The notes: a model not told the origin generated them from the letters alone. 56,762 bases of DNA from Candidatus Methylomirabilales bacterium (GCA_041599135.1 JBFHXD010000002.1:1-56762), one strand, 5' to 3'. Positions 19,432 to 56,762 are shown, counted from the first letter of the stretch. Program-made: numbers and translations.

Positions 19432-19435
19432 AGGA

Positions 19436-40793: not shown

Positions 40794-41516
40794 TTATACT
40801 GAACGGCTGGCTTCTTGATGATACTGCATCAGGAGGGCATCTATCAACGCCTGGTCATGCCCGATGAAGTCGTGGGCCGCTCGGGTGACCACGGTGTAAA
40901 AGCCATCCCCGGCGTGGCGGGCAACCTGCTCGGCAAGGACCGGAAACCAGAGGTAAAGGTGCCGACCAAGAAATCCCGCCTCCGCCTCAAGTCGCTTGAC
41001 GCCGTCCTTGAGCGACTGCTTGGTCCAGGCCTCTGCTTCCTTTCCGCAGAGGAAGCTCATGAACTCAAGCTCGACGGACGCATGGTCCGGCGGTTCCTTG
41101 AAGGACGTCGCCACCGCCAGGCCAGCCGCGCCGTATACTCCGTCAAGTGCCGCCATGGTCAACGCCGGGTTGTCGGGCGTCAGAAAGCCAGACTCGTACA
41201 GGGGCACCTTTTGGTGTACGAGAAACAGATCGAGATAGGCCTGCTCGAGGTCCGCAGTTCCTGACTCCTCCCGCTGTACGAGAAGAGCCAGGAACCTGGT
41301 CCACTGGGAAAAGAAGGCAAACTCCACGAGCGACTGACTTTGCTGCTCTAACTCGCGGGCAACAGCGACGAGGCTCGTTAGGCGCTCCTCAGCCGGGTAG
41401 AGCAGCGTCGTGCCGAAGAGCCGGTACGCGGCCTGACGGAAGCGTGCCAGATCTGCGAGCCGCACGGGGGCAGCGCGAGATTTCCGCCTTGTAGCCTTAG
41501 GGCTTCTGCGGGCCAT
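40794..41516 (-). CDS. TorD/DmsD/NarJ-family molybdoenzyme chaperone
   Basis: From MARRSPKATRR... . RQAAYRLFGTTLLYP, LDLFLV, YESGF and ELEFMSFL are typical of the 'nitrate reductase delta'/TorD family. The track ORF N-terminus (to 41825) is an over-extension overlapping the dihaem gene. A GTG at 41465 is an alternative start. Confidence 0.7.
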   Translation of the reverse strand: MARRSPKATRRKSRAAPVRLADLARFRQAAYRLFGTTLLYPAEERLTSLVAVARELEQQSQSLVEFAFFSQWTRFLALLVQREESGTADLEQAYLDLFLVHQKVPLYESGFLTPDNPALTMAALDGVYGAAGLAVATSFKEPPDHASVELEFMSFLCGKEAEAWTKQSLKDGVKRLEAEAGFLGRHLYLWFPVLAEQVARHAGDGFYTVVTRAAHDFIGHDQALIDALLMQYHQEASRSV

Positions 41517-41883
41517 AGAAGTGCCGACCCGGCCCGGCCGTATGGCATCCCAGGCAGACCCGGCGGTCAGTGAAGCCGGGGGAGCTTGCCGAAACGTCCA
41601 CCGCAGGTGGCTCGGTAAAGGGCAAAACGCTCGGGGGCAGCTGCCCGCCATGACAGGTGGCACATTCGAGCCCGAGGACCCCGGCATGGATTCTATGGAA
41701 GCGCTGATCCGGCGCCATCCCATAGGCCTTGTTCGCCTTGCCGCCGACGTCGATCTTGCCCTGTTGGATTTTTTTGGCCACCTCGGGCAGTGATACGGAC
41801 TCGTCTTCTGATGCGGTGGCCGCAAATCCGCCGATTAACCCGACCCCAAGCAACACCACCAAGATCGCAATCACCCTGTTCAT
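41497..41883 (-). CDS. Membrane-anchored/secreted dihaem cytochrome c
   Basis: N-terminal hydrophobic helix. Two CxxCH motifs (CATCH, CLGCH). 128 aa. ATGA overlap with the Fe-S subunit gene. Confidence 0.75.
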   Translation of the reverse strand: MNRVIAILVVLLGVGLIGGFAATASEDESVSLPEVAKKIQQGKIDVGGKANKAYGMAPDQRFHRIHAGVLGLECATCHGGQLPPSVLPFTEPPAVDVSASSPGFTDRRVCLGCHTAGPGRHFYGPQKP

Positions 41884-42623
41884 GCTGACCCCCTCCCTGG
41901 CTGTTCGATCTGGCGTGCTCCGTCCCCGGGTCGTGCCTTACCGACGTAATGCACCCGTGGCTGCGTGCCAAAGTCCTCCCGCAGACGGAACGAACGCTTG
42001 TCGGCCACGCGCTTCGAAACCGCGCTTTTTGGGTCATCGAGGTCGCCGAACTCCAGCGCAAAGACCGGGCAGACGTTTACGCACGCGGGCTTGAGCCCTT
42101 TCCCTTCCACCCGCTGGACGCAGAAGGTACACTTGCCCATGATCCCCTGGGGATGGCCAGCACCGGCGATTCTCCGCTTTTCCTTGCCATATTTGCGGAA
42201 CAGGTCCGGATTCTCGTATGGAGGGGAGTCGCCTTTCGTAATCTGAATCAGATCCTTGTCGCCCCAATTCAGGTACTGGTTCTTCTTCCCAGGTTTCCAG
42301 TTGAAGTAATTCACCCCGTACGGACAGGCAATGGCACAATAGCGGCAGCCGATGCACGTGTCAACATTGGTCGCCACCATACCATCCGCCCGCTTGTACC
42401 GTGCCCCGGTCGGACACACCTTGACGCACGGGGCATTGTCACAGTGCTGACAGGGCCGGGGCAGGAACGATATCTTCGTGTTGGGGTACTCCCCCTCCTC
42501 GAACCGAAAGACGTACATCCAGAAGGTACCCTCAGGGGTGTTGTTCTCGACCTTGCACGCCTCCATGCAGGCGCGGCACCCCGTGCACCGATCCACATCT
42601 ACTACCATTCCGTATCTCGGCAT
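41880..42623 (-). CDS. Four-cluster [4Fe-4S] electron-transfer subunit (PsrB/DmsB/NrfC type)
   Basis: CTGCRACMEAC, CQHCDNAPCVKVCP, CIGCRYCAIACP, CTFC...CVNVCP. 247 aa. Confidence 0.9.
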   Translation of the reverse strand: MPRYGMVVDVDRCTGCRACMEACKVENNTPEGTFWMYVFRFEEGEYPNTKISFLPRPCQHCDNAPCVKVCPTGARYKRADGMVATNVDTCIGCRYCAIACPYGVNYFNWKPGKKNQYLNWGDKDLIQITKGDSPPYENPDLFRKYGKEKRRIAGAGHPQGIMGKCTFCVQRVEGKGLKPACVNVCPVFALEFGDLDDPKSAVSKRVADKRSFRLREDFGTQPRVHYVGKARPGDGARQIEQPGRGSA

Positions 42624-42635
42624 CGCTCACCTCCG

Positions 42636-45188
42636 CTAGGCCTTCCAGACTCGAACTTTGACATGGAAGGATTGATCCGCACTGTTGCTCACATAGCCTT
42701 CGCCAGTAAAGAAGAGGATGTTGGAGTTCGGCCCCTTGGTAAAGGGTTCGCTCCCCCTGTTATAGTGGTGGGGCATCCCTACCACATCCGGCCTGATTCC
42801 CTCGGACAGCCGGGCCTGTGTTTTTACTTTTCTCTTCTCTCCGGTCACCGCGTTGTGGGACTCCACCCAGACCATATCGCCGTCCTTGATCCCCTTCGCT
42901 TTGGCCGTCTTGGGGTTGATCTCGAGCCGCTGCTCGGGTGCCAGCTCGGCCAGCAACGGAATCTGGGACGCGCGGGCCTGCTTGAACTCGATGAGCTTGA
43001 AGCTGATCAGGGTGAGGTCATACGTGCTCGGCGAACCTTCCATCGTGGGCGTCCGATAGGCCGGAAGCGCCGTATAGTCCTGCCAGTAAATCTTGTCGAC
43101 TCCTTTCTCCCTCATCTCGCCCTGGTAGCGCAGCAGTGATTCCCCGTAGAGACGATGGCGGTTGCCGCCAAAGGGGGGATCCTGGGCGTACCCATAGTAC
43201 TTCTTCGCCGGCACGGGTCCCTTGACCTTGACCCCGTGCTTCTCGAAGTACGCGATTCCTTCCTTGATTCCCTCTCCTTTTGCCCATGTGTCGAAGATTT
43301 CTCGGACGGTGGGCTTCTTGTTCACGTCTAGCGTGTGCGGGGCCTTCAGCTTGAGCGCCTTGTTGACCTGGGCCAGGTACCCCTTGTCGCCGTACAAGAT
43401 GCCGGCCTTTTCACAGAGATCGAGGTAGATATCGATGTCCCCCCGGCTCTGGTACAGCGGGTTCATCACAGGGATCCGCATCGCAACCGCATCGGTGTAC
43501 TGGTCCGTGGCACTCAAGGGGCCCTCGTACTTCTCCATGGTGGCGGCGGGAAGGACGACATCCGCGAAGTAATCCGCCGTCTCGGACAGCCACGGGTCGA
43601 TGACCGCTATGAACTTCAGCTTCTTGTACGCCTCGATGAAATCCGGTTGCGAGCAGAACGAGCCCAGAGGGTTCGCCATGTGGACGATCATCACCTCTGG
43701 CGTGTAGTCGACCCCGTATTTCTTGGGATTCTGGATCACCTTGGTCACGATCCCGGAGAGGTTACTGTTGATGGGGTAGAACTTCGAGTCTTTGAGATAG
43801 ACGTTATAGGGAGGATCCTTGATCTTGATACTATCGAGCTTCTCCCAGTTCTTGTGGATCTTGTGCGTGTAGTCGATCCGGAGCCCTCCTACCGCCTCGA
43901 CCGCACCGAGGAGCATGGAGACGAGCATCATGGCCCGCAGCGTCTGGAAGCCGAGTTCCGTCTGCGACATGTGGTAGGCCATGATGCTGACCGGGCGGTA
44001 CGGAAGCCGCACGCCGTCCAGCACGATGGTGCTTCCGATCCTAGCGTTGTCACCCAGGTCCCAAGCTACTTGGCGGATGCTGTCCGCCGGGATATCGCAG
44101 ATCTTCGCAGCATGCTCGGGGGTATACTCATCCACGTGCTCCTTAAAGACCTGGAAGGCCGTCTTGACCTTCGCCCGCCCGACGGTGAACTCTCCCTCAA
44201 GCGCCGGCTTGACCCCCTTGGCATCGTGGGGTTTTGCGGACCTGGATGCCGAGTCCCAGACCTGCTCCTTCCCAGCCACGCGGAGGAAGGAACCGTCCTT
44301 CGTCACCAGGAAAGGCGCATTGGTGTGCTTCGTCAGGTACTCCCGGTCGATCGTGCCCCGTCGGATCAACTCGCGGGAGAGTGCCAGGGCCAGGGCCAGG
44401 TCGGTCTGCGGCTTGATGGGGAGCCACTCATCCGTGAAAGGGCCCGCGCCCCTGAGCCGGGGATCGATCACGACGGTCTTCATCCCCCGCTCTTTGGCTT
44501 CGACGAGCTGCTGGGGCCAGGTGAGCCAACACGTCTTGTTGCCACCGGCGTTCGTGATATTCCAGCCCCAGGATAGCAGATAGTTGCAGTGCCGGAAGTC
44601 CGGGTGGAGCACCCCGTGCAAGCCCGTGGTGTACTCACAAGCGCGATACCCGGCGTCAGAGCAATAGGCGCCGTGGTGGAGCTTGGTCGCGCCCGAAGCC
44701 TTGACGAAGGCATCATCGTAGAATTTCTTCGCCTTGCTCCGCCCCTTTTGCCAGAGGAGCAGCCGCTTGTCTCGCTTACGCACGTCATTGATTTTATCCG
44801 CCACCAGTGTCAGGGCCTCGTCCCACGAGACCTGACGCCATTTGCCGGGGACCCCTTTTTCGTTGGTCCGGACCAGGGGGGCCTTTACCCGGTTGGGGTC
44901 ATACATTGCCTGAATCTGGGCAACCCCCTTGGGACACAGCGTTCCCTTGTTCCGCGGATGGTCAGGGTGTCCTTCGAGCTTCACCACCCGCCCGTTGATG
45001 CGGCGGGCAAGGATGCCGCAGTCCTGTTTGCCAATCCAGCAGGTCGTGGGCACCATCTCTTCCGCAGCCGCCGGTGAGCCGGCCATGACCTCCAGCGTCT
45101 CCGGTCCACCGGAGAGGAAGCGGCTGAGGACAAGACCTCCCCCTGCTGCCGCAGAGCCTTTGAGGAAAGATCTTCGTGTAATTTTCAT
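42636..45188 (-). CDS. Tat-exported bis-MGD molybdopterin oxidoreductase catalytic subunit (Psr/Phs/Arr-like clade, substrate unknown)
   Basis: Twin-arginine signal MKITRRSFLKGSAAAGGG. N-terminal Fe-S motif C-x2-G-x3-C-x27-C (TTCWIGKQDCG...LCPKG). 850 aa. RBS AAGGAGG. Confidence 0.88.
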   Translation of the reverse strand: MKITRRSFLKGSAAAGGGLVLSRFLSGGPETLEVMAGSPAAAEEMVPTTCWIGKQDCGILARRINGRVVKLEGHPDHPRNKGTLCPKGVAQIQAMYDPNRVKAPLVRTNEKGVPGKWRQVSWDEALTLVADKINDVRKRDKRLLLWQKGRSKAKKFYDDAFVKASGATKLHHGAYCSDAGYRACEYTTGLHGVLHPDFRHCNYLLSWGWNITNAGGNKTCWLTWPQQLVEAKERGMKTVVIDPRLRGAGPFTDEWLPIKPQTDLALALALSRELIRRGTIDREYLTKHTNAPFLVTKDGSFLRVAGKEQVWDSASRSAKPHDAKGVKPALEGEFTVGRAKVKTAFQVFKEHVDEYTPEHAAKICDIPADSIRQVAWDLGDNARIGSTIVLDGVRLPYRPVSIMAYHMSQTELGFQTLRAMMLVSMLLGAVEAVGGLRIDYTHKIHKNWEKLDSIKIKDPPYNVYLKDSKFYPINSNLSGIVTKVIQNPKKYGVDYTPEVMIVHMANPLGSFCSQPDFIEAYKKLKFIAVIDPWLSETADYFADVVLPAATMEKYEGPLSATDQYTDAVAMRIPVMNPLYQSRGDIDIYLDLCEKAGILYGDKGYLAQVNKALKLKAPHTLDVNKKPTVREIFDTWAKGEGIKEGIAYFEKHGVKVKGPVPAKKYYGYAQDPPFGGNRHRLYGESLLRYQGEMREKGVDKIYWQDYTALPAYRTPTMEGSPSTYDLTLISFKLIEFKQARASQIPLLAELAPEQRLEINPKTAKAKGIKDGDMVWVESHNAVTGEKRKVKTQARLSEGIRPDVVGMPHHYNRGSEPFTKGPNSNILFFTGEGYVSNSADQSFHVKVRVWKA

Positions 45189-45269
45189 ATTCTCCCCTCC
45201 TTAGATAGTACGCGCCGGGGTTTACCCTAATCTCTCACGAGTTCTCCGAGGACTATTTGAACGCTCAAC

Positions 45270-45309
45270 ATAAAAAAGGAGATCGCCCACGATGGGAACG
45301 ATCTCCTTT
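45270..45309 (-). terminator. Intrinsic terminator (attenuator) in the 5' leader of the molybdoenzyme operon
   Basis: Minus strand: AAAGGAGATCG-TTCCCATCGTGGG-CGATCTCCTTT followed by TTTAT. 11-bp perfect stem, inner CCCA/TGGG extension. ~80 nt upstream of ATG 45188. Confidence 0.7.
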
Positions 45310-45427
45310 GCCAATTCAGGCCCGGAGCTAGAGTATCTCGACCGGACCATCGGGCTGGCCGGGGGATCGCTCCCCCGACCGTCGGGTCCATCCCGTCCCT
45401 GGGGGATCAGGATGGTTCGGAGATCTC
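45299..45427 (-). ncRNA. Structured leader; candidate riboswitch aptamer (Moco-type suspected)
   Basis: GAUCUCC (from 45425-45419) can pair with GGAGAUC (45306-45300), closing a ~110-nt multi-hairpin region. That region includes the GNRA hairpin GGGGGA-GCGA-UCCCCC and CCAUCC...GGAUGG. The 3' strand of this helix is also the 5' strand of the terminator. The CUCCGAACC...GGGCCUG...GGCAAAGGAG strings resemble conserved Moco-motif blocks, from memory only. Confidence 0.4.
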
Positions 45428-45761
45428 ACTTTTATTTCTCGGTAACTTCGAGATGCCAGGCCGTCTCTGCCGGCCGAATGAGTCCTGACGCTGCGTGAGC
45501 AAAGCAGGTGCCACAATGAGAGACCGACCCTGATAACGCACTAACTTATCGATTCGTGAAGAAAAAAGAGGACAGAGCTGAAGCGAAGGCGCACAGGCCA
45601 TTGAGGCGTGGCTGCCCCAGAAAGAACGAGGAAAGACACGCGCAAAAACACCGAAAATATCCGAAAGTAGCTATGTTGGAAGTATGGGACACTCTTGCCT
45701 CATTCCTAGGAATTGTCCCTTGGCTGTCCCACTGCTCTCCTCCTCCGTACGCAGGCCTCTA

Positions 45762-45800
45762 CAAAAAAAGAAGGGCTCCGTTCGTTTGACGGAGCCCTTC
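45762..45800 (-). terminator. Rho-independent terminator after the octaheme cytochrome gene
   Basis: Minus strand: GAAGGGCTCCGT-CAAACG-ACGGAGCCCTTC followed by TTTTTTTGT. ~30 nt downstream of the stop at 45832. Confidence 0.8.
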
Positions 45801-45831
45801 ATGGAGTAACAGAAACAAAATCCTGGGCTGG

Positions 45832-46953
45832 CTACTTACCGAGGGTGTGAATATTCTTGCTGTTCTCCAGCGCCCACTTCGTGTCCTGTGCGCCGTGACA
45901 GCGCAGGCAGGCGAAGTCCACGGTCAGTATCCCTGTGGCGAACTTGCCATCGGGGGTGAACATCTTATCTGCCGGATTTGTCGAAATCTTCACGATGTGG
46001 GATTTCACATCGCCGACATATTTCGAAAACTTTTCGGCACTCTTCCCGGCGGGGGGCATATGGCAGTCCATGCACGTGATGCCAGAGAGCTGCATTTTGC
46101 TGCCCTTGAACTCCTTGCCCTGCTTCGAATGGCAGGCCGTGCACTCTCTCCTGATGGAGACCTCCGCCCGCTTATGCGAGTCATGGCAGGTGACGCAGCC
46201 GATCTTGCCTGCATGCGGGCCGGCGAGATACTCGTTGTACTGCTCGTGGTGGCGGATGAACCCACCCTTGGCGGGAATCTTTTCTTTGGTCCCACGAATG
46301 TGACACTGACCGCAAAGGTCCGGGGAAGTGCTCCGCTTGATATTCTCCTTGCTCGGTGCCTCGGCGTGGGCCGCGCCCGGGCCATGGCACTCCTCGCACG
46401 TGATCCCGGGAAAGGCCCACGTGCCGACGATTCCCGGCAGCCCGTCTTGGTGCCCCTCTTTGCTGTACCCGCTGGTGTGGCACGCGCCGCAGTCGTAGGG
46501 CTTTTTCTCGCCTGCGTGGTAGTCCACCCAGCGGCCCGTGGCCAGGTTGTACTGGTTCTTTCCGGGTTGATCCTTATTGGGCCCGGTCTTGGTGATGATA
46601 TATCCCTGTGTGTCAACAAACCGCGCCTTCCAGTTGGCCCCACCGATCACATAGCTGATGTCGTCCCAGTCGTACCCCTCGGGCAGGGGGATTCCCCACG
46701 CCCGGGCCTCGGCGGCGGGGCGAAGTTTCTTGGGATGCCCAGAAGCTCGGTAGTCGTTGTACTTGTCGCTATGGCACTCGGCGCAGGCCTGGGGCCCTGC
46801 ATAGCCCTTTGCCTTGGCCTCGCGTGAAACTTTCTCCGAAGGAAGAAGCAGCGCCTTCTCGTTCGCCCATGTAAATCCAGCGACGAGCACAAAGACCAAG
46901 GACAAGACAGTAAGGGAGCAAACAATATAGGGACGCGCGATACGCCTACGCAT
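45832..46953 (-). CDS. Octaheme c-type cytochrome (secreted or anchored)
   Basis: N-terminal hydrophobic segment. Eight CxxCH motifs (CAECH, CGACH, CEECH, CGQCH, CVTCH, CTACH, CMDCH, CLRCH). 373 aa. Confidence 0.85.
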   Translation of the reverse strand: MRRRIARPYIVCSLTVLSLVFVLVAGFTWANEKALLLPSEKVSREAKAKGYAGPQACAECHSDKYNDYRASGHPKKLRPAAEARAWGIPLPEGYDWDDISYVIGGANWKARFVDTQGYIITKTGPNKDQPGKNQYNLATGRWVDYHAGEKKPYDCGACHTSGYSKEGHQDGLPGIVGTWAFPGITCEECHGPGAAHAEAPSKENIKRSTSPDLCGQCHIRGTKEKIPAKGGFIRHHEQYNEYLAGPHAGKIGCVTCHDSHKRAEVSIRRECTACHSKQGKEFKGSKMQLSGITCMDCHMPPAGKSAEKFSKYVGDVKSHIVKISTNPADKMFTPDGKFATGILTVDFACLRCHGAQDTKWALENSKNIHTLGK

Positions 46954-47057
46954 GGCGACTTCCTTCCGAAGGCTTCACAGTTTTTCGCAGGCCTTCCGAC
47001 ACGAATTCTACATCCTGAAGGGCCTCGCGCACGAATTAAGTCGCGGTCCAATTATAG

Positions 47058-48434: not shown

Positions 48435-48650
48435 CTCCTTCTGGGTCTCTCCGGCCGGGTGCGCCAGGCAAAGTAGCCACTGCGACTCATGCGGAGCGCT
48501 TGACTAAGCCGGCCCACACGGATAAAGCGCCCTTGAGCATTGCGCCAGGGTTCAATCGGAGATCCGGACGCTTTCACAGGGGGTTGCGCCGGCAAAGACA
48601 AGAATGAAAGGCTCCGTCACTCTGCTGGAACGCTTACAGCAAACGAGGCT

Positions 48651-48755
48651 GCACAGGGCCGGATTTGACCCGGGAACCCTCTGGTCACACTCAACGTACG
48701 GAAGCAGATCGGCTGCAGGCCCGAGCTGGGCCTTTTGCTCGCCGCACGCGGGTCT
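48651..48755. repeat. Copy A of a ~105-bp direct repeat (thioredoxin-segment fragment, AGA at the position of the TGA)
   Basis: Hand alignment with 50604-50708 shows about 10 mismatches. Minus-frame peptide RPACGEQKAQLGPAADLLPYVECDQRVPGSNPALC versus (TGA)PACGEQKAQFGPAADLLPYVECDQRVPGSNPGLC. Confidence 0.85.
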
Positions 48756-48808
48756 CGGCGTGGTTCCGCAGACTACGGCGCCGATCTTACTGGCATGACG
48801 GATTCGCG

Positions 48809-50272
48809 CTACTTTTGTTCCCCGTAGCGCTGGCGGTAAAACTCCTGGATCTTCTGGAGTTGCTCCTTGCTCATCCCCTCTTTGAGCCATCGATGGCCCG
48901 GCTGGGAGAAGACGTGCTTGTCGAGGAGCTGCGTGGCAAGCGGCTCGCCCGCGACGTGCTTGACCTCTGGAATGAATTCGAGATAGAAGTTCTTCGCAAC
49001 ATCATACATGCCGTGCCACCAGGCATAATCAGGTCCTGACATGGACGCGCCGTGTCGCGCCCGGCGCCCCTCGTGGTGCCAGAGTTCCCAGTAGATCCAC
49101 TCCAGATGCTCGTCGAAGGGGGCCGGTGTCAGCTTCCCTGCCTTCTTGAGCTCTTGCATGATGGTAGTGGCCGGGCGGGCGAACTTGTCGTTGTACAGGA
49201 CCACCAGATCGTCGAACTGCCGGTAGAATCCGGTTACGAACGGCTCAGCATGACAGTTCCTGCACACGTTCACCATGCGGTCCCGTCGGTCTTTCCAGGT
49301 TAACACCTCTTTCACCCGCTTTCCGTCCACCCTGGCTCCGGGCTTGGGCAGGGGCTTGCCCTCCGGAATATCGGTCTTGGACAGATCGTCGAAGACCACC
49401 ATGTTCAGCTTGTTTGAAATCGGTGGCCTGAGCGTCCAGGAGATTCGCTCGCCCACATCGTGGGTCACTCCCTGATTTGGCGTGGCGCTCATATGGCACG
49501 TTGCGCACGTCGGGGCCGCCGTGTAGTCCACGCCTACGATCCAACTGGAGCGGTCAATGTTCAGCCGGTCCTTGAACGCTTGGTACAGGATGCCGTGCTT
49601 GGACTCCTGGTAGACTTCGATCTGCGGGTGATCCGGTCCCAGGTGGCACTTCCCACAGGCATCGGGCCGACGGGCCTGACCCACCGAGAAGGCATGCCGG
49701 GTGTGGCAGGCGCTACAGCTTCCCCGGCTGCCATCCGGGTTGATGCGGCCGATCCCTGTGTTGGGCCAGGTGGTTGGATCCAGCTTTCCCCCGGAGAGCA
49801 CGCGGATTTTCGATCCGTGGCACTGCATGCACCCCGTGGCGACGGCTGGCGGCCCCCCTACCACCTCACCCAGGAAGTTGTCAAGAGAGGCGAGAATTTG
49901 CCCCCCCTTCGCATGGTGGCTCCCTTTCTGCTCATCCACTTCTTTCTGGTGGCACTGGGCACAATCCTTCGGACTCACCAGGATAGCGATCGTCAGGTCA
50001 AAGTGTTCGAAAGCGTCCGGATCTCCCTTGGCGGCGCGATGGCAATCGTAGCAGTTGACTCCAACCTCTCCGTGACGCCCGATGCGCCACTCCTCTACCA
50101 GGGCCACGTTCTGCTCCCTATGGCAGGCGACGCAGGCGTCTCCCTCTTTCGCCCCCCAGCTTGTGCCCGGGTACTGCGCGTAGGCTCGTCCTTCCCACCA
50201 CCCCGGGGTCGCAAGTATGCCCAAGAGGAGAGTTGTCCCCATCGCCGTAACAGAAAGCCACCGGCTCATCAT
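48809..50272 (-). CDS. Hydroxylamine-oxidoreductase-like (HAO family) octaheme cytochrome c
   Basis: Signal peptide from MMSRWLSVTAMGTTLLLG, with AGGAGG RBS. Eight CxxCH motifs (CVACH, CYDCH, CAQCH, CMQCH, CSACH, CGKCH, CATCH, CRNCH). CGKCHLGPDHPQIEVYQESKHG block typical of the HAO family. Confidence 0.8.
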   Translation of the reverse strand: MMSRWLSVTAMGTTLLLGILATPGWWEGRAYAQYPGTSWGAKEGDACVACHREQNVALVEEWRIGRHGEVGVNCYDCHRAAKGDPDAFEHFDLTIAILVSPKDCAQCHQKEVDEQKGSHHAKGGQILASLDNFLGEVVGGPPAVATGCMQCHGSKIRVLSGGKLDPTTWPNTGIGRINPDGSRGSCSACHTRHAFSVGQARRPDACGKCHLGPDHPQIEVYQESKHGILYQAFKDRLNIDRSSWIVGVDYTAAPTCATCHMSATPNQGVTHDVGERISWTLRPPISNKLNMVVFDDLSKTDIPEGKPLPKPGARVDGKRVKEVLTWKDRRDRMVNVCRNCHAEPFVTGFYRQFDDLVVLYNDKFARPATTIMQELKKAGKLTPAPFDEHLEWIYWELWHHEGRRARHGASMSGPDYAWWHGMYDVAKNFYLEFIPEVKHVAGEPLATQLLDKHVFSQPGHRWLKEGMSKEQLQKIQEFYRQRYGEQK

Positions 50273-50314
50273 GTGTCTCCTCCTATTTGGATGGCGACTC
50301 ATATCGTTACAGAG

Positions 50315-50328
50315 TTTTTGCGCAAAAA
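50315..50328. promoter_or_regulatory. Perfect 14-bp palindrome upstream of the HAO-like gene
   Basis: TTTTTGCGCAAAAA, ~45 nt upstream of ATG 50272, inside an unusually AT-rich gap (50360-50494). Confidence 0.25.
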
Positions 50329-50494
50329 AACCTCTCGCGGCGTTCCGGACATCGTGCACTCACATACGTGTCATTATCTTGGCATCTATGTACTAGAGAA
50401 CCGGTCCCATGTCTATGACCAAAATCACAAAAAAATAAATTTTATGATAGGCCCCCGCAAGGGACGCCGAAATTCCGCGGGTCCTTCGAGAATA

Positions 50495-51325
50495 CTACTG
50501 TTGGAAGTCCGAGAGCTTGGCCAGCCGGTTAAACGAGAGGACGCCCTCGTAGCGCTTTCCCTTGATGAACCACGTGGGGTAGGCCTTGATCGCGAGTTGG
50601 TTGCACAGCCCCGGGTTTGACCCGGGAACCCTCTGGTCACACTCGACGTACGGAAGCAGATCAGCCGCAGGCCCGAACTGGGCCTTTTGCTCGCCACACG
50701 CGGGTCACCAGTATGCCCCGTACATCATGGCGCCGCTCTCGGCGAGGTGGCGAGCGAGCGCCTGCTGTGCGGCGGCGGTCTCCGGCGAGCTTGCCGCGAA
50801 GAAGCCGGCGCCGATGAGGACCGTCGCCACCGCGGTGATGGTTCCGAGGGTCACAACGCGGGACTTGCGCGCGGGGAACCGTCGGCCCGTCCCCCTTGGG
50901 CGGTACAGAAGGAGCACGCCAAACAGCGCGGCCGCGATCACCGCCGAAAGGATGCAATACCCGCAGATCGCGCGGATCTCAAACAGCTCGAGGTAGGTGA
51001 GATACGCCGAGAAGGAAACGCCTGCCACGGCGAGGAGAAAGGTGGAGAGCCATCGCCGCGCGTCTAGCCCGATGAGCGCGATCGCACCGATGGCTGCGTA
51101 CAGCCCGGCGCCCCACAGCGCCGTCGGCAAGCCAAAAAAGACGGCGTATCGGCTTGCCTGGACGATGTCACAGCCACTGCCGGCCGTGCAGAAGAGGGGG
51201 CTGTCACCGCCGAGCTTCGTCAATGCGAGATAGCCCGCGACGACGAATCCCGCGGCTGCAAGCCCGGCCACCGGCCAGTTGCGCCGTGGCGTCTCGAATT
51301 GTTTGTGTCGTGAGAATCGTGCCAT
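50495..51325 (-). CDS. VKOR (DsbB-analogue) fused to a thioredoxin-like domain, with in-frame TGA (50705-50707) at the first Cys of the CxxC motif; candidate selenoprotein
   Basis: VKOR motifs CTAGSGCDIVQAS and CGYC in a 4-5 TM core. Then ...LAESGAMMYGAYW-TGA-PACGEQKAQFGPAADLLPYVECDQRVPGSNPGLCNQLAIKAYPTWFIKGKRYEGV...*. This reproduces the YGAYWCPHC...YVEC...YPTW pattern of VKOR-Trx fusions. The 69 sense codons after the TGA contain no ATG, GTG or TTG. Confidence 0.65.
50604..50708. repeat. Copy B of the ~105-bp direct repeat (inside the functional thioredoxin domain, includes the TGA)
   Basis: See copy A. The two copies bracket the HAO-like gene and its AT-rich upstream region. Confidence 0.85.
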
Positions 51326-51337
51326 TTTTTCCTTGTA

Positions 51338-52834
51338 TCATTGCCCGCGCGCTTGGGCAAGTGCCTCTTCCGCCTTGCGACGCGCGGTCTCGTATAGCGC
51401 GTCCGCGGCATCCGGATTGTGGATACCTCGCCCGCCCTTCACGAGGGCGAGCGCTCGCTGCGCGTCTTTGAGCAGCACGTCTGCTCCGCTGGTCTGGCGT
51501 CCAGCGCGCCGCGCCTTGCCGAGTGCGGCCTCCGCCCGTTTGATCGCCGTGGCGGCTTGTGCCATCTGCTCGTCGAATCCGGTTGTCCACGCTTCCACGA
51601 ACGCCATGTATGCCTCGTCGTGGCACACGAGGCACTGCTGGCCAGCAGCCTTGCGCGAATGCTCTTTGGTGAGGTCGTGGCATCCTGTGCAACCCACGGC
51701 AGCAACCATGACGTTCGGCTTGATTTTCGCGAGGTCTGTCTTCACCTCGCCGCGGTAGAACGCGGCTTGCCTGCGGTGACACGATTCGCACCGCTCGTTC
51801 TGTGGGCTGTGGTGACAGGACGTGCACGTCGCAGGAGTCGCGGTGACTGCCTTGTGCACCTCGGCCGAATGGCATCCCGTGCACACGGCACCGAACTCCG
51901 TAATGTGCCGGGCGTGGGGGACGTTCTGCTTTGCGAAGACCACCGTCTCGGGAACCTTGACCCCTGCCTGTTCGTGGCACAGCACGCCACAGTACCCTCC
52001 GCGGACCAGGGTGTCATTGGTCTTGACCGGCGCCTTGCCAAGGAGCTTGAGCGCCTCGTCGAGCCAGCCGTTCGCGAGTTTGAGCAGATCCGCCGCATAG
52101 AAGACATTGTGGACGCCTTTCCCGAGAACAACGAACTGGATGTTGAACTCGGCCTCGTCCACGAGCTGCCAGGCCCGGGCCTGCTTCGGATTCGTTGGAT
52201 CGGTCCCGCTCAGCGCCCCGCGTGCCTGTTTGAGCTTCGGCGCGACGACCTCTCGCATCTTGTCCAGCGTGTCCGCCCACTTTTGGAGCATCCCGCGATA
52301 TTTCTCGCCGTGGCACTCAACACATGCCTGCTCGCTCGGTCTGAACGTCTGCCCCACGATCCCGGCCTCGCGCTCGGTCTCTTTGGGCACGATGTGGCAG
52401 GCGATGCATGCCACCCGAACCTGAAACATGTGGCTCGGGATCATCGGTGTCCCGCGCCCACCCATGCCGAGATACATTCGAAGCACCCCTTGGTGCTTGT
52501 CAACGTGACAGTTCGCGCACTCCAGCTCACCGGCCCGGTGGGGTTTCGCCGGCGGTTTTACTTTGGCGCGGTCGGCAGGCGCGATGGGCCGCGGACCAGG
52601 ATGCTGTGCAACCATACTGGGCAGTCCGATGACCGCGGGCTGAGGACTGATCAAGGTCGATTTCGGATTTCGGATTTCGGATTTCGGATTTTTCCCTGCA
52701 GTGAACGGCGAACTGTGAGCGACGAGGGACACCGCAGTGACTGTCGAGTCGGACCCTGGTTTCTCCGCGGAAACGGCTGGAAGGGCTACGCCGAGCAGCA
52801 GCCCGAGGGCGGCGATGCGGATCCACACGGTCAT
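51338..52834 (-). CDS. Periplasmic multihaem cytochrome c (8 CxxCH plus 1 CxxxCH)
   Basis: Signal peptide MTVWIRIAALGLLLGVALPAVSA. CANCH, CIACH, CVECH, CGVLCH, CTGCH, CTSCH, CESCH, CTGCH, CLVCH. ATGA overlap with the upstream gene. The track ORF N-terminus is over-extended. Confidence 0.85.
   Translation of the reverse strand: MTVWIRIAALGLLLGVALPAVSAEKPGSDSTVTAVSLVAHSSPFTAGKNPKSEIRNPKSTLISPQPAVIGLPSMVAQHPGPRPIAPADRAKVKPPAKPHRAGELECANCHVDKHQGVLRMYLGMGGRGTPMIPSHMFQVRVACIACHIVPKETEREAGIVGQTFRPSEQACVECHGEKYRGMLQKWADTLDKMREVVAPKLKQARGALSGTDPTNPKQARAWQLVDEAEFNIQFVVLGKGVHNVFYAADLLKLANGWLDEALKLLGKAPVKTNDTLVRGGYCGVLCHEQAGVKVPETVVFAKQNVPHARHITEFGAVCTGCHSAEVHKAVTATPATCTSCHHSPQNERCESCHRRQAAFYRGEVKTDLAKIKPNVMVAAVGCTGCHDLTKEHSRKAAGQQCLVCHDEAYMAFVEAWTTGFDEQMAQAATAIKRAEAALGKARRAGRQTSGADVLLKDAQRALALVKGGRGIHNPDAADALYETARRKAEEALAQARGQ
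52659..52693. repeat. Heptanucleotide tandem repeat inside the multihaem cytochrome CDS
   Basis: GATTTCG x4 perfect plus one imperfect unit (GATTTTT). Encodes ...GKNPKSEIRNPKST... just after the signal peptide. Confidence 0.9.
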
Positions 52835-53757
52835 TGGGAGCCCTCCGCAGTGCGGGCGATACGGGTGGTCCGGTCCGTATCGCGGACGGCAGTCGGAATC
52901 CCCATCAACGGAGGCAGCCTGTGCTTGATCTCGTTGTGACAGCGCGTGCATTCGATGCTGTGCTTCTCGACGTGGGCGTCGTGGACGAGCGCAGTATCGG
53001 AGTACCGCTCGATCTTCTCTGGCTCGTTGTGGCAGGTGAAGCAGCGCTCGCGCGGGGCCTCCCCATCCCCCTCGATGACGTTCAGGTGGCACTTCTGGCA
53101 GGCAACTCCGCGGCGCGCTATCTCCTCGTGGTTGAACCGGACCGAGCCCACTATGATCTCACCCGTGGGCGGATCGTGGCAGCTCGTACACCCGGCGATC
53201 GGGGCCAGCTCGCGCGCGGCCTTCTTCCCTTTAAAGTGGCAAAGGAAGCACGCCGATTCCGCCACCTCGAAATGCCTCTCAATGACGATCTGCGAGTGGC
53301 AGCTCGTGCAACGGAGCTGTCGTCCGGTCTTCAAAGGGTCGAAGTGCGGTTGGTGATTGAACCGGATTGCTTGCCTAAAGCTGACGGTGCCCGCCTCCGT
53401 GAGTTGGCTGCTGGAATGGCAGCCTGATCGAAGGCAGCTCGCGTCTTCGACCTCGGCAAACGGCTTTGAGCTGTAAGTCTGGGTGACATACTTTGCGACC
53501 TGGCTGATCGCCTGATACTTGACCCAGAGTGTGTCGCGGAAGCCTGGCGGATAGTGGCACTGGACGCAGGCCACGGTATTATGCTTGGAGTGCTTCCAGG
53601 CCTCCACGTAGGGCACCATAATGTGGCATGAGTTGCAGAATGACGGGCTCGAGCTGACCTTATAGAGCCCTCCCAGCATGGCGATGCCAACCACCAGAAC
53701 TGTGGTGAGGAGTATCAGAGTCTTTCGTCGGCGTCGGGCGGTAGGTTGCGGGTCCAC
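52831..53757 (-). CDS. NapC/NirT/NrfH-like membrane-anchored multihaem cytochrome c (8 CxxCH plus 1 Cx4CH)
   Basis: N-terminal TM helix followed immediately by FCNSCH. Then CVQCH, CLRSGCH, CTSCH, CFLCH, CTSCH, CQKCH, CFTCH, CTRCH. 308 aa. Confidence 0.85.
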   Translation of the reverse strand: MDPQPTARRRRKTLILLTTVLVVGIAMLGGLYKVSSSPSFCNSCHIMVPYVEAWKHSKHNTVACVQCHYPPGFRDTLWVKYQAISQVAKYVTQTYSSKPFAEVEDASCLRSGCHSSSQLTEAGTVSFRQAIRFNHQPHFDPLKTGRQLRCTSCHSQIVIERHFEVAESACFLCHFKGKKAARELAPIAGCTSCHDPPTGEIIVGSVRFNHEEIARRGVACQKCHLNVIEGDGEAPRERCFTCHNEPEKIERYSDTALVHDAHVEKHSIECTRCHNEIKHRLPPLMGIPTAVRDTDRTTRIARTAEGSQ

Positions 53758-53953
53758 GTAGTCTTCTCCCCTTCCTTCAGGGGGGTCACCATGATGATCC
53801 GATTAGGATGACCCCGGCGGCCAGCGTCGAAACATGGCCGCCCGGGGGTTCTTATCCCTCCAGAGCGAATGGTGATCCGCCTGAAGAGCCTCAAGCCGTC
53901 CATCGGGCGGTGCCCAGTCCTTGCCTGCTGAGCTCCCGATCGCTAGGGCAGCT

Positions 53954-54298
53954 TCATTTTTTCACATGGCACTTGTTGCAACTGGCCTTGTCTTTCGTGC
54001 TGAAGGATTGCTGCCCGTTATGGCAGGTCCCGCAGAACTTTCCGTCGTCCATTGCCGCCATCGTGATTGGTCCAGACGTCCCCTTCTTCATCTTGAACAC
54101 TTTGGTGTGACAAGCGGTGCACTTAAATTGCTGCTTGTGCTTTTCGTGGCTGAACGTGACCGGACCCGGGCTGTCCTTGCCCTGCTCAAACGTGAAGTCC
54201 GGCGGGACCTTGATCCCCGCAGCGTCGGGGACAAAAGCCACCGTCCCGAGCGCGAACCCGATGACAAGCGCAAGGCTACCGAAGAGCATGAATCGCAT
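53954..54298 (-). CDS. Triheme cytochrome c7/c3-type
   Basis: Start at MRFMLFG after GGAGGGG. VTFSHEKHKQQFKCTACH, CGTCH, CNKCH. ~114 aa. Confidence 0.8.
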   Translation of the reverse strand: MRFMLFGSLALVIGFALGTVAFVPDAAGIKVPPDFTFEQGKDSPGPVTFSHEKHKQQFKCTACHTKVFKMKKGTSGPITMAAMDDGKFCGTCHNGQQSFSTKDKASCNKCHVKK

Positions 54299-54321
54299 AG
54301 TCCCCTCCTCTCTCATGTCGG

Positions 54322-54945
54322 CTATTGGGGTGGCGAGGCTACGCTCCGCAAGAACCCAAAAAGATCCACCATCTCTTTGGACGTAAAGCGGGGATACAGA
54401 ATTCCCATTGCTTTGGTATGTCCCGCCATCCGGGGGGAATGATTCCATATCGCGGCTGCCCAAACAAGGGGCGACTCGTAACCACCCTGATACTCCGTGA
54501 ACTCAATCCCCACGCCGCCCCCCTCACCTCGGAGCCGATGGCACTTGAGGCACCCTTTCCGGACCAGGAGGGTTTGTCCCCTGAGAAGATCTGGGGCAGG
54601 GTCCCGGGAAGGGTCGGCCTCGAGGTACGCCATCACGTCGGCCATTTCCTCAACGTTAATTCGCGGCCACTCATGTCCCTCCCGTCTGAGCATTTCGAAC
54701 ATGGCCGGCGCGTGATTCCAGAGCCGGCCCGTCAGCTCGAGCGCGCCCTGACGTCGCTGCAGATTTTCAAGCTTTGGTCCCCCCCCCCACTCACCCAAGG
54801 GCATATGACAGCGAGAGCACTGTTTGTCGATGAAAAGCTTTTCCCCCCGCTTTGCGTCTCCCGCCGCCTTGGCGGCAGCCAGCATGTTTGGGGCCAAAAG
54901 GCCTCCGCAAATCAAGATGGCGCCGAGCAGTCGATGCGGTCTCAT
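54322..54945 (-). CDS. Dihaem class-I cytochrome c associated with the bc complex
   Basis: Signal peptide [24 protein letters not shown] and CLKCH. ATGA overlap with the cytochrome b stop. Confidence 0.8.
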
Positions 54946-56045
54946 TGCGTCGCAACCTCCGTGTAGCCAAGGTACGTCAACACGATCATGTACACAATAG
55001 TAGAGATACCGATCCAAGTGAACAGAGGGCTGGGCTCGCCCCGGGCGGTCCGCCTGTCCAGAAAGGGGATGAGCAAGAGGAAAAGCCCGCCCAGGCCGAA
55101 GCCAAGGATCCCCACAGCATCCCCCTCGATGCCGAGGATGTGGGACGGTAAGTACTTGAGCGTCTTGAACATAAACATGAAGTACCACTCGGGCTTGATG
55201 CCGACCGGCGCGGGCGCAAACGGGTCGGCCTTCTGGCCGAGCTCCGTTGGGAAGTAGGCGGCTAACGCGGCCAGGATCGCCAGGGCGGCGAGCCATCCCA
55301 CCATGTCCCGTAGCAAGAAGTTCGGCAGAAAAGGCATGACGCGCTTCGAGCTCGTTGGCTGCTCAACGCCGGGCGGGATGCTCATGCCATGCTTCTGGAC
55401 CAGGAAGAGATGCAGGCCCAGCAGGAGGGTGGTGAGTGCTGGAAGGACGGCGACATGGAATCCGTAAAAGCGTGTGAGCGTCGCCCCGGTGACTTCGTCA
55501 CCGCCGCGGGAAACCCGGAGAAGAAACGACCCGATCACGGGGACAGCCCCCGTGATCTCGGTCCCCACCTGGGTTGCGAAAAAGGCAAGCTCATTCCATG
55601 GCAGCAGATACCCGGTAAAGCCGAAGGCCATCGCGATGCCCATCAGTCCTATGCCCGAGAGCCAAGTGATCTCGCGCGGTGGGCGATACGCCTTGAGGAT
55701 CCACACACTAAAGAGGTGAACAAACAGGGTAAAGATCATCAAGTTCGCCGCCCACGCGTGGATCGAGCGGATGAGCCAGCCGAACTCCACCTCCGCCATC
55801 AGGAACTGGACGGACTCATACGCCTCCTCAGCGCTTGGGCGGTAATAGAAGATCAGGAGAATACCCGTGGCCACCTGGATCATGAAGAGAAAAAGGGTCA
55901 TCCCCCCAAGGTAGTACCACAACGTATGCCGGTGGACGGGGACTTCCTTCTTTCTGGCGATCTTCTCCACCTCGGCGAGGCCGACGCGTCCGTCGAGCCA
56001 ATTCCAGAGCCTGCCATGTTGCTGGTCGGGAGTGTCCATGCTCAC
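54942..56045 (-). CDS. Cytochrome b (fused b6 plus subunit-IV-like) of a Rieske/cyt b complex
   Basis: 367 aa polytopic protein with conserved His pairs in helices B/D and a PEWY motif ([12 protein letters not shown]). Confidence 0.92.
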
Positions 56046-56500
56046 GCACTCTTACTGACCACAATCTCGTTTCCACGCACGTTGACGATGTACTGCTCTA
56101 GCGGCCGGGGGGGCGGGCCGGCGATGTTGTTCCCGTTGAGATCAAAGTGCCCATTATGACAGGCGCACCAGATGTGACTGAGGTCGGACCGGTACTGCAC
56201 CGTGCAATTGAGATGGGTACAGGTGGCAGAGAAGGCCCGGAGCTCTCCGGTCGGCGTCCGGATCAGGATCCCAGGGCGGTTGCCGAATTTGAAAATCTGC
56301 CCCGAATTCGGTGTGACATCGACCGGCTTAATCGGCAATGTCACCGTTGCGGCCGTGGACTCTCCCGCTGGCGGTGGAATGAGGTACCGGGTCACAGGAT
56401 AGAGGACCGAGAGCAGAAAAGCCCCCCCGCTCGTGGCCAGAAACCAGTTGATGAATTTCCTGCGCGTCGTCTCTCGCCCCAGCAGATCCTCAATCATCAT
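56042..56500 (-). CDS. Rieske [2Fe-2S] subunit
   Basis: CTHLNCTV and CACHNGHF cluster-binding boxes, with an N-terminal TM/Tat-like segment. 152 aa. Confidence 0.92.
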
Positions 56501-56727: not shown

Positions 56728-56762
56728 TCATCGGCTCTCCAGTTGGCGGATCTTGGCCACGA

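Follow-up and report, generated by a model that had tools for sequence, protein, structure and literature searches.

A conserved Rieske/cytochrome b and nonahaem cytochrome gene cluster in Methylomirabilota and the genes that follow it in one lineage

A DNA stretch of 56,762 nucleotides (nt) from Candidatus Methylomirabilales bacterium (GCA_041599135.1 JBFHXD010000002.1:1-56762), here called the window, carries on its minus strand a respiratory gene cluster in which a Rieske/cytochrome b pair is followed by a series of multihaem c-type cytochromes. This cluster is the subject of the present analysis, and all positions are counted from the first letter of the window. An earlier note, made from the sequence alone, had read the genes from 56500 down to 41497 as a Rieske protein, cytochrome b, dihaem cytochrome c, c7-type cytochrome, NapC/NirT-like cytochrome, soluble cytochrome, VKOR-thioredoxin (VKOR-Trx) protein, HAO-like octahaem cytochrome, beta-barrel protein and a further octahaem cytochrome, with a molybdoenzyme operon behind them. 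This order and content were found as listed, and family scans supported every listed gene except the beta-barrel. On balance, and with considerable reserve, we think it probable that the region encodes a menaquinone-linked, modular periplasmic multihaem electron-transfer hub that feeds interchangeable terminal modules.

Gene layout and haem sites

The features are given below in the order of transcription, with lengths in amino acids (aa) and family scores in bits.

56733-56762 (minus): last ~10 codons (…VAKIRQLESR, then stop) of an upstream multihaem cytochrome gene, cut by the window end
56042-56500 (minus): Rieske 2Fe-2S subunit, 152 aa; PF00355 43 bits; twin-arginine signal/anchor
54942-56045 (minus): cytochrome b, 367 aa, b6-like with fused subunit IV; PF00033 174 bits, PF00032 41 bits
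54322-54945 (minus): dihaem class-I cytochrome c, 207 aa; 2 CxxCH, PF00034
53954-54298 (minus): trihaem c7-type cytochrome, 114 aa; PF14522 60 bits, TIGR04257 75 bits (cut-off 40)
52831-53757 (minus): membrane-anchored NapC/NrfH-like nonahaem cytochrome, 308 aa; 8 CxxCH plus one Cx4CH; PF03264 49 bits (cut-off 24)
51338-52834 (minus): periplasmic nonahaem cytochrome; 8 CxxCH plus one Cx3CH; signal peptide; generic c3/c7 matches only
50494-51325 (minus): VKOR-thioredoxin fusion with in-frame UGA at 50705-50707; PF07884 92 bits
50670-50684 (minus): hairpin GGCCCAGUUCGGGCC, candidate bacterial selenocysteine insertion sequence (SECIS), 20 nt 3' of the UGA
48809-50272 (minus): HAO/IhOCC-family octahaem cytochrome, 487 aa, periplasmic; PF13447 "Multi-haem_cyto" 95 bits
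47058-48434 (minus): outer-membrane porin of 16-18 strands, start uncertain; called by AlphaFold2 (AF2) and Foldseek; ends in Phe
45832-46953 (minus): octahaem cytochrome resembling the N-terminal part of OcwA; 8 CxxCH; PDB matches
45770-45800 (minus): intrinsic-terminator-like hairpin 3' of the octahaem gene; stem and T run
45275-45309: second terminator-like hairpin, before the molybdenum (Mo) enzyme operon; stem and T run
42636-45188 (minus): Mo-bis(pyranopterin guanine dinucleotide) (Mo-bisPGD) catalytic subunit, exported by the twin-arginine (TAT) route, Psr/Phs/Arr-like; PF00384, PF01568, PF04879, PF10518
41880-42623 (minus): four-cluster iron-sulphur (FeS) subunit, ArrB/DsrO/NrfC-like; Fer4_11 and related domains
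41497-41883 (minus): small dihaem cytochrome c, 128 aa, N-terminal anchor/signal; 2 CxxCH
40794-41516 (minus): TorD/NarJ-type chaperone for the Mo enzyme; PF02613 76 bits, TIGR03482 73 bits

The density of haem motifs lies far above chance, since a six-frame count gave 37 CxxCH in these 10.7 kb against one in the remaining 41.5 kb of the window. The 37 canonical motifs that had been counted earlier between 45832 and 56500 are exact and fall in frame in six exported cytochromes (2+3+8+8+8+8), while both of the further motifs reported for the Mo operon belong to its small dihaem cytochrome. Two irregular motifs proved to be real haem sites: among 78 homologues of the NapC-like protein, 77 keep CLRSGCH (Cx4CH), and CGVLCH (Cx3CH) is invariant in the soluble nonahaem (29/29 homologues). 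Both proteins are thus nonahaems, and the six cytochromes hold 39 c-haems. All c-type cytochromes of the cluster have a signal peptide or an anchor.

The genes had also been described as co-directional with many 4-nt overlaps, which overstates their number. Three such overlaps occur inside the island (Rieske/cytochrome b, cytochrome b/dihaem and NapC-like/nonahaem) and one in the Mo operon (FeS subunit/dihaem), but several gaps are long. The spacings are 23 nt from the dihaem to the c7 gene, 196 nt from c7 to the NapC-like gene, 12 nt from the nonahaem to VKOR, 221 nt from the thioredoxin end to the HAO-like gene, about 374 nt from there to the porin and 104 nt from the porin to the octahaem gene. 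The 643-nt gap between the octahaem gene and the Mo enzyme contains both strong terminator-like hairpins, whose stems of 12 and 14 bp are each followed by a T run; the Mo operon does follow the cytochrome genes, as had been stated, but as a separate transcription unit. The stretch probably comprises four or five transcription units rather than one operon, and the three overlaps inside the two sub-operons of the core, as we call the six genes from Rieske to soluble nonahaem, argue for co-translation there. Refined starts with a GGAGG-type ribosome-binding site were placed at 54945 (dihaem), 54298 (c7), 52834 (soluble nonahaem) and 50272 (HAO-like). For the porin, there is no ATG, GTG or TTG near the start of the signal peptide (~48335), the point at which its homologues begin; GTG codons some 30 codons further upstream offer the only starts in frame, so that the protein has either a long N-terminal extension or a CTG start. 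A promoter scan was uninformative (3 sites found against 3.7 expected), which leaves the two terminators ahead of the Mo operon as the only conspicuous signals, and neither the Rfam gathering scan nor the tRNA scan of the window gave a match.

The core proteins and their conservation in relatives

The Rieske sequence has both cluster-binding boxes, CTHLNC and CACHNGHF, and a TRRKF twin-arginine motif. A Ser and a Tyr raise the potential of ubiquinol- and plastoquinol-type Rieske proteins. In box II of the protein described here, Gly and Phe replace these potential-raising residues of high-potential Rieske proteins, and since both Ser and Tyr are missing we infer a low-potential, menaquinol-type centre. 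Cytochrome b has the two His pairs, H-x13-H and H-x14-H, and the Qo-site PEWY motif (KPEWYF). It reads WYYLGG at the position where B. subtilis QcrB has YCFGG, and so lacks the haem-ci Cys by which the b6f and Firmicute b6c subtypes were tested. By these motifs, the Rieske protein and cytochrome b together possess all that is required for a Q cycle. The dihaem gene, which overlaps the cytochrome b stop by 4 nt, supplies the co-encoded c-type cytochrome of a bc complex and is kept in relatives, where its homologues stand at the same position and are 56-64% identical; the c7 gene likewise occupies the same position there.

Two larger cytochromes complete the core. The NapC-like nonahaem begins with a single N-terminal anchor, TLILLTTVLVVGIAMLGGL, followed by the first-haem motif FCNSCHIM, a CxxCHxM of the kind that is the hallmark of NrfH and is invariant in 78 of 78 homologues. 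Structure matches link the N-terminus to NrfH (2j7a_C, E 8e-6) and the remainder to ActA of alternative complex III (8k9e, 6lod). Members of the NapC/NirT/NrfH family are typically tetrahaem (NrfH/CymA) or pentahaem (TorC) proteins. With nine haem sites in 308 aa and 58 bits on TIGR03153 (cut-off 134), the protein falls outside the NapC/NirT/NrfH equivalogs, and its make-up places it in what would be a new, larger subfamily with an ActA-like extension. The soluble nonahaem has 448 homologues, and those with a taxon label are almost all from Rokubacteria/Methylomirabilota/NC10. No sequence homologue was found for it in the PDB; its AF2 model was poor (pLDDT 61), and Foldseek returned non-significant matches to NrfA, MccA and ONR only (E 0.3-1).

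Conservation was examined in metagenome contigs searched with the NapC-like protein, which gave 80 loci that were scored against every island protein; relatives' loci are designated by L-numbers. Close loci are those with a NapC-like protein at least 60% identical to that of the window (n=34, with near-duplicates such as L100/L101, L094/L095 and L107/L108, so that independent observations number nearer ten), and distant loci show 50-57% identity. The synteny comparison that the earlier note had proposed bears out a conserved arrangement. The order Rieske, cytochrome b, dihaem, c7, NapC-like, nonahaem was found in 19 of the 19 close soil-metagenome loci with at least 3 kb of upstream sequence, where the Rieske and cytochrome b proteins are 70-80% identical to those of the window and co-directional with the rest. 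The nonahaem gene directly follows the NapC-like gene in 71 of the 80 loci. Among the distant loci this pair was found in 44 of 46, and Rieske/cytochrome b lies nearby in only nine of them, in other orders.

Upstream of Rieske, relatives have a 464-aa cytochrome with nine CxxCH and a cytochrome c with four. The codons at the window edge (…VAKIRQLESR, then stop) match the C-terminus of the 464-aa cytochrome (…VVKIRQLDRRR…, e.g. in L100), hence the cluster extends past the window. In the ~230-nt non-coding gap before Rieske (within 56501-56762), two copies of a 34-nt repeat lie 102 nt apart, together with a tandem 14-mer; the core of the repeat, (A/G)TGATCGGTCA(C/T)CGG, may be a regulator binding site.

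Downstream of the nonahaem, an MtrA-like decahaem cytochrome (10 CxxCH) was present in 13 of the 15 close loci with enough downstream sequence, and most of these also gave an MtrB/PioB porin; in L100 and L001 the decahaem gene precedes that of a PF11854 MtrB/PioB porin of about 750 aa. Porin-cytochrome genes of the MtrAB type were found in the relatives only (L001, L005, L094-L122): the window gave no PF11854 match, nor any match when compared by tblastn with the relatives' MtrA and MtrB. Judged by gene order, the core is a phylum-conserved Methylomirabilota operon that usually stands beside a predicted outer-membrane electron conduit. In the window's lineage, the conduit position instead holds the HAO/IhOCC octahaem, a general porin and the OcwA-like octahaem. 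In L100, a Rokubacteria-like contig, a canonical NrfA gene (2773-4170; PF02335, 420 bits) lies just upstream of the conserved Rieske/cytochrome b-NapC-like-MtrAB cluster, and nitrite ammonification and the conduit may share quinol-side machinery in that organism.

The VKOR-Trx gene directly follows the nonahaem in L110, L111 and L113, as it does in the window, with the MtrA-like gene next in L111 and L113, and it holds the same slot in L001. The gene was correctly noticed before, but an in-frame TGA that joins its VKOR and Trx halves was missed. This TGA stands at the first Cys of the CxxC motif, and read-through gives YGAYW-U-PAC-GEQK… and then a Trx-like domain. The identical UGA and a conserved downstream frame were found in L001, L002, L110, L111 and L113 (proteins 53-78% identical). 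A GGCCC(A/G)GUUCGGG(C/U)C hairpin with a 5-bp GC stem and a GUU loop, located 20 nt 3' of the UGA, recurs in all five loci, nearly identical in L110, L111 and L113 and with a compensating G-U change in L001; Rfam gave no match to it. VKOR-Trx is probably a selenoprotein, because a conserved UGA, downstream frame and hairpin are the standard bacterial selenoprotein signature, and a literature search returned no report of a selenocysteine VKOR. It resembles the bacterial VKOR-thioredoxin fusions that substitute for DsbB/DsbA in having a VKOR membrane domain, a periplasmic Trx domain and a W-x-P-x-C motif, but differs from them in that its first redox Cys is the conserved UGA with its hairpin and that the gene lies inside a respiratory cytochrome operon.

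The HAO-like octahaem and the other genes after the core

The HAO-like protein has eight CxxCH in HAO order, and its best PDB match is IhOCC (4qo5; profile E 2.8e-65 over three collinear stretches). Matches to HAO, HOX and HDH are at about 1e-24 to 1e-26 (best HAO 6e-26), and it scores 77 bits against the HDH equivalog cut-off of 900. These matches place the protein in clade 1 of the NrfA/ONR/HAO superfamily in the scheme of PMC9250108. The IhOCC branch of this clade lacks the P460 cofactor, and IhOCC is treated as a reductase (PMC9250108, Soares et al.). Whether the cross-linking Tyr is present or absent is taken to set the catalytic direction, and homologues of HAO that lack the cross-link convert nitrite to NO by reduction (PMC8042395). 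The HAO-like proteins of Methylomirabilis have been assumed to oxidise hydroxylamine (PMC6094997).

Two positions of the protein are relevant here. An invariant Asp214-His215 (GPDHPQ) aligns in the profile alignment with the catalytic Asp267-His268 of NeHAO (GVDHNN), where IhOCC has DPDVPA. In a manual ungapped alignment of 32 residues (NeHAO 436-467 against HAO-like 385-416), an invariant Tyr416 (GPDYAWWHG) falls on Tyr467, the cross-linking residue of NeHAO, with the matches Glu/Glu, Glu/Glu, Gly/Gly and Tyr/Tyr; the NeHAO sequence around Tyr467 was confirmed against PDB chains. At this position IhOCC has Trp, and the cross-link-free Kustc0458 has Val in a weak, non-significant HMMER stretch. 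The hhalign alignment of the HAO-like family with the NeHAO C-terminus ended at GKLTPA/GTLTGQ, 32 residues short of the Tyr, so that the equivalence rests on manual inference and Tyr416 is put forward as a candidate P460 cross-link Tyr, as a lead rather than a result.

At least 596 genomic stretches encode a relative of the HAO-like protein, of which 80 loci were kept for context. These span many phyla (Nitrospira, Chromatiaceae, Thiomargarita, Rhodocyclaceae, Desulfomonilaceae, Geobacteraceae and others), with 55-89% identity and invariant blocks such as GPDY[AT]WWH, an unusually high conservation in a large family. The closest named relatives of both the HAO-like protein and the porin come from "Candidatus Methylomirabilales" metagenome-assembled genomes (83-86% identity). 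Members of the HAO-like family are often annotated automatically as hydroxylamine dehydrogenase.

The HAO-like gene joins the core only in the window, in L001/L002 and, differently ordered, in L005. In L001/L002, with 89% identity in the HAO-like protein, the genes run NapC-like, nonahaem, VKOR-Trx, HAO-like, MtrA-like and MtrB, an order that shows the gene as an apparent insertion at the junction of core and conduit. L005 reads Mo enzyme operon, MtrA-like, MtrB, HAO-like, Rieske, cytochrome b, multihaem, dihaem and c7, and in L007 a two-component system stands after the HAO-like gene (85% identical), and next comes an octahaem gene whose product is 80% identical to that of the window. Elsewhere the family has other partners. 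In a deltaproteobacterial locus (L042, 10001-14171) it is followed by a small multihaem, an NrfC-like and an NrfD-like gene, and in a Nitrospirota locus (L036, 9968-17708) by a Psr-like Mo-FeS-NrfD set; by analogy, neighbours of these kinds would be an NrfABCD-style wiring to the quinone pool. Followers of the NrfCD type or the Psr-like Mo-FeS-NrfD type were also observed in about 15 other loci of the HAO-like survey.

The earlier note had connected a bc complex clustered with an HAO-family protein to the Rieske/cytochrome b clusters of anammox bacteria. The likeness is apt, and it had already been drawn in part: Lücker et al. (2013) described an operon of Rieske/cytochrome b and an octahaem cytochrome common to Nitrospina, Kuenenia and M. 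oxyfera (PMC3578206). The clustering itself is present in the window, but the HAO-like gene lies outside the conserved core. A reading modelled on anammox would make the HAO-like protein the catalytic subunit of the Rieske/cytochrome b complex, as proposed for the Kuenenia complexes R/b-2 and R/b-3, and the complex an energy-conserving, Q-cycle-based quinol:nitrite (or NO/hydroxylamine) oxidoreductase. The co-direction of the Rieske/cytochrome b, multihaem and HAO-like genes in the window and the adjacency of HAO-like, Rieske and cytochrome b in L005 fit this proposal, as do the operons of Lücker et al. and the reduction of nitrite to NO by cross-link-free homologues. We nevertheless judge it improbable. 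The HAO-like gene is found in none of the 34 close-clade core loci, about 76 of the 80 HAO-like genomes have no Rieske/cytochrome b neighbour, and in the window the VKOR-Trx gene and a 221-nt gap separate it from the core. On this synteny we rejected the HAO-like protein as a conserved subunit of Rieske/cytochrome b.

A second alternative concerns the direction of electron flow. The core may run inward, taking electrons from Fe(II) or minerals via MtrAB/PioAB in the relatives, or from hydroxylamine via the HAO-like protein in the window, with the quinone pool being reduced via the NrfH-like cytochrome or a reversed Rieske/cytochrome b. Sideroxydans MtoAB-MtoD-CymA, the Acidithiobacillus pet operon and nitrifier HAO-c554-cM552 would be its analogues. 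The porin-cytochrome genes of the relatives are of the two-gene MtrAB/PioAB type, with no MtrC-like gene seen beside them. PioAB-like genes have already been noted in Rokubacteria, which a network analysis puts among the nearest PioA/PioB neighbours at about 43% identity, suggesting iron oxidation (PMC10654088). The HAO-like family keeps the Asp-His pair of oxidative HAO and the invariant Tyr416, in line with the proposal of hydroxylamine oxidation for Methylomirabilis (PMC6094997). However, IhOCC, the closest structure, lacks the P460 cross-link and is treated as a reductase (PMC9250108), and hhalign stopped short of the region in which Tyr416 was aligned by hand. Moreover, Deltaproteobacteria wire the family like NrfABCD, a reductive system, and the NrfA gene just upstream in L100 also fits reduction. 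The direction of electrons is not readable from sequence, and we regard electron uptake as rather unlikely, though as the most probable of the alternatives to the hub.

The porin gives a different picture from the barrels of the relatives. The barrel call of the earlier note is supported by an AF2 model with pLDDT 85 and by Foldseek porin matches at E 1e-13 to 1e-9 (OmpM1, PorB, OprB and Occ porins). Among 77 homologues, the few named ones belong to NC10/Methylomirabilales, and one matches Porin_O_P. In four contexts inspected, the homologues adjoin a major facilitator superfamily (MFS) transporter in L087, L088 and L090 and have no nearby cytochrome in L089. A role as an MtrB-like sheath was rejected, as the barrel is of the general type with 16-18 strands and its homologues lie beside MFS transporters, not cytochromes. 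The last octahaem cytochrome matches 6i5b (OcwA, E 1.6e-17) and 6qvm (OmhA, E 8e-8) in the PDB and is similar to the c554-like N-terminal half of OcwA, a reductase of the cell surface. A branched or extracellular electron-transfer chain had been suggested from the combination with a NapC/NirT-type protein and a porin-like protein. The porin of the window gives no support for extracellular transfer, but the MtrA/MtrB(PioB)-like genes that follow the same operon in relatives do.

Different neighbours for the HAO-like, porin and Mo genes in other genomes, together with several long intergenic gaps and two strong terminators in the window, are what would be expected if an independent bc complex, NrfH-type system, HAO-like protein, porin, octahaem and Mo enzyme had come to lie side by side by chance, uncoupled from each other. 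Such a chance neighbourhood is a little more improbable still than the anammox-type complex. The six-gene core has 4-nt overlaps, and its order recurs in 19 of 19 loci; the NapC-like/nonahaem pair recurs in 71 of 80, and the HAO-like, Rieske/cytochrome b, porin-cytochrome and Mo genes cluster again, shuffled, in L005 and L001. L007 repeats the linkage of the HAO-like gene with the octahaem gene.

In the molybdoenzyme operon, the catalytic subunit has PhsA as its best NCBIfam match (259 bits, cut-off 694; ArrA 150 against 1600) and Thermus Psr (2vpw, E 6e-39) as its best PDB match. It shows the features of the Psr/Phs/Arr enzymes, namely a TAT signal, an FS0 4Fe-4S domain, Mo-bisPGD domains and a four-cluster FeS partner, and this FeS subunit scores 189 bits on ArrB and 187 bits on DsrO, both below cut-offs. 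No gene for an NrfD/PsrC-type membrane subunit was found in the operon, and the 128-aa dihaem cytochrome, which gave no family match, stands in its place. With its own dihaem instead of an NrfD anchor, the enzyme could draw on the same cytochrome pool. Directly after the chaperone gene lies a 525-aa cytoplasmic polyferredoxin (39183-40760, minus) that has an MvhD/FlpD-like domain (HdrA2-like C-terminal part) and would be an unexpected partner for a molybdoenzyme of the periplasm. Beyond the operon are a small exported protein with a PF10634 Fe2+-transport (P19-like) domain (38394-38891, minus), a domain also found near the porin homologue of L090, and beside it a membrane protein without family match (37855-38355, minus).

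Elsewhere in the window, the neighbours include citrate synthase, isocitrate and malate dehydrogenases, 2-oxoacid:ferredoxin oxidoreductase, FtsH and similar genes. The possibility of a mobile island was considered and rejected, given a flat GC content of 0.58-0.64, the tricarboxylic acid cycle and housekeeping neighbours, and no mobility sign found. An archaeal-type S-adenosylmethionine synthetase (18220-19620, minus; PF01941, 513 bits) was identified rather than the usual bacterial MetK. At 10237-13598 (plus), the gene for a BcrAD/BadFG-type double ATPase (727 aa) precedes one for a DUF2229 "CoA enzyme activase" protein, a pair of the kind that activates 2-hydroxyacyl-CoA dehydratases/benzoyl-CoA reductases; no dehydratase gene was visible nearby.

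Proposed electron flow and related systems

In the hub that we favour, the Q-cycle-competent Rieske/cytochrome b, the dihaem and c7 cytochromes, the NrfH-type nonahaem and the soluble nonahaem would act as one inner-membrane supercomplex, to which the two cytochromes encoded upstream of Rieske would also belong. This assembly, with cytochrome b/Rieske and the NrfH-like nonahaem as its two quinone-reactive modules, would pass electrons between menaquinol and a multihaem wire in the periplasm. VKOR-Trx would probably maintain periplasmic thiol/disulfide chemistry for Cys-rich proteins via the same quinone pool. The wire would serve whichever terminal module the lineage has: in most relatives an outer-membrane conduit of the MtrA/MtrB(PioAB) type, and in the window's lineage a periplasmic HAO/IhOCC enzyme acting most likely on nitrite, NO or hydroxylamine. 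The OcwA-like octahaem and the dihaem-linked Mo enzyme may be further outlets of the wire.

Several observations weigh against this hub. The soluble nonahaem has no recognisable fold by PDB search or AF2 model. In most of the 80 genomes examined, the HAO-like gene occurs by itself, so its link to the core may be incidental, and the porin family is unassociated with cytochromes elsewhere. In the window, the 196-nt gap between the c7 and NapC-like genes splits the core, and the HAO-like gene has gaps of 221 and about 374 nt on its two sides. Finally, we know of no established mechanistic precedent for two quinol-reactive modules in one operon.

Each component of the region comes from a known superfamily, and the idea of Rieske/cytochrome b combined with multihaem cytochromes is established for anammox and was noted for M. 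oxyfera (PMC3578206). Within the searchable literature, which leaves out most subscription journals, we found no description of an operon of Rieske/cytochrome b, a nine-haem NrfH-type cytochrome, a nonahaem and MtrAB, nor of a rewiring of such an operon to an HAO-like enzyme.

The anammox complexes R/b-2 and R/b-3 (Kuenenia kustd1480-85 and kuste4569-74) are alike in pairing Rieske and a b6-like cytochrome b with membrane-bound multihaem cytochromes, and the window has an HAO-family octahaem nearby. They differ in that the core of the window has a dihaem, a c7, an NrfH-type nonahaem and a novel soluble nonahaem and lacks an NAD(P)-binding subunit; moreover, its HAO-like gene is a lineage-specific addition, and the relatives couple the operon to MtrAB/PioAB. 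Shewanella CymA-MtrCAB, Sideroxydans MtoAB-MtoD-CymA and Rhodopseudomonas PioABC resemble the relatives (L094-L122, L001, L005), in which NapC/NirT-family, multihaem, MtrA-like and PF11854 porin genes cluster co-directionally. In contrast to these conduits, a complete Rieske/cytochrome b stands on the inner-membrane side here and the NapC-family member has nine haems, while the window is without MtrAB and has a small general porin and an OcwA-like octahaem instead.

IhOCC (Igni_0955, 4qo5), the best structure match, shares the eight CxxCH in the same order with the HAO-like protein, but the latter retains the Asp-His pair, and at the position of the IhOCC Trp it carries an invariant Tyr. The earlier note had called the combination with a NapC/NirT-type quinol dehydrogenase and a porin-like protein different from the anammox clusters, but the pairing of a NapC/NirT-family cytochrome with an HAO-family protein is not unusual: the nitrifier HAO-c554-cM552 module is its classic example. 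In that module, as in NrfHA and NrfABCD, a periplasmic multihaem enzyme is coupled to quinone via NapC/NrfH-family or NrfCD-type subunits, and the HAO-like family shows both kinds of neighbour (the window and L042, respectively). The difference is that the quinol-side cytochrome of the window has nine haems and an ActA-like extension and is in an operon with Rieske/cytochrome b, not with the enzyme. The Cbc-type complexes and ExtMNOPQS of Geobacter likewise join multihaem cytochromes c, a b-type quinol-oxidising subunit and a Rieske-like FeS subunit, and cytochrome b scores 214 bits on ExtP; however, scores stay below the equivalog cut-offs (ExtP 290, ExtN/ExtO 200), and gene content and order differ.

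A bolder proposal, which we advance tentatively and consider rather unlikely as a whole, is that the operon encodes an as yet undescribed inner-membrane supercomplex in which a Q-cycle Rieske/cytochrome b and an NrfH-type nonahaem are hard-wired via the novel nonahaem to MtrAB/PioAB. The window's lineage would have rewired it to an enzyme of the widespread HAO/IhOCC clade, which, as it retains the Asp-His pair and a candidate P460 cross-link Tyr, could be an oxidative hydroxylamine- or NO-forming enzyme outside nitrifiers and anammox bacteria.

Rokubacteria/Methylomirabilota are abundant in soils and aquifers, and their respiration is known almost only from genomes. Were the proposal true, the operon would offer this phylum a concrete and testable route to the redox cycling of iron, manganese or humics, and abundant soil bacteria would have an engine for extracellular electron exchange that is built on a bc complex. 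The few inner-membrane partners known to serve extracellular electron transfer (CymA, ImcH, CbcL, CbcBA) would be joined by a new type. The swap of the conduit for the HAO-like gene is an example of terminal-module exchange on a fixed quinol-side engine. Because the HAO-like clade is widespread and routinely annotated automatically as hydroxylamine dehydrogenase, the proper reading of nitrogen-cycle gene surveys depends on whether it has a P460 cross-link.

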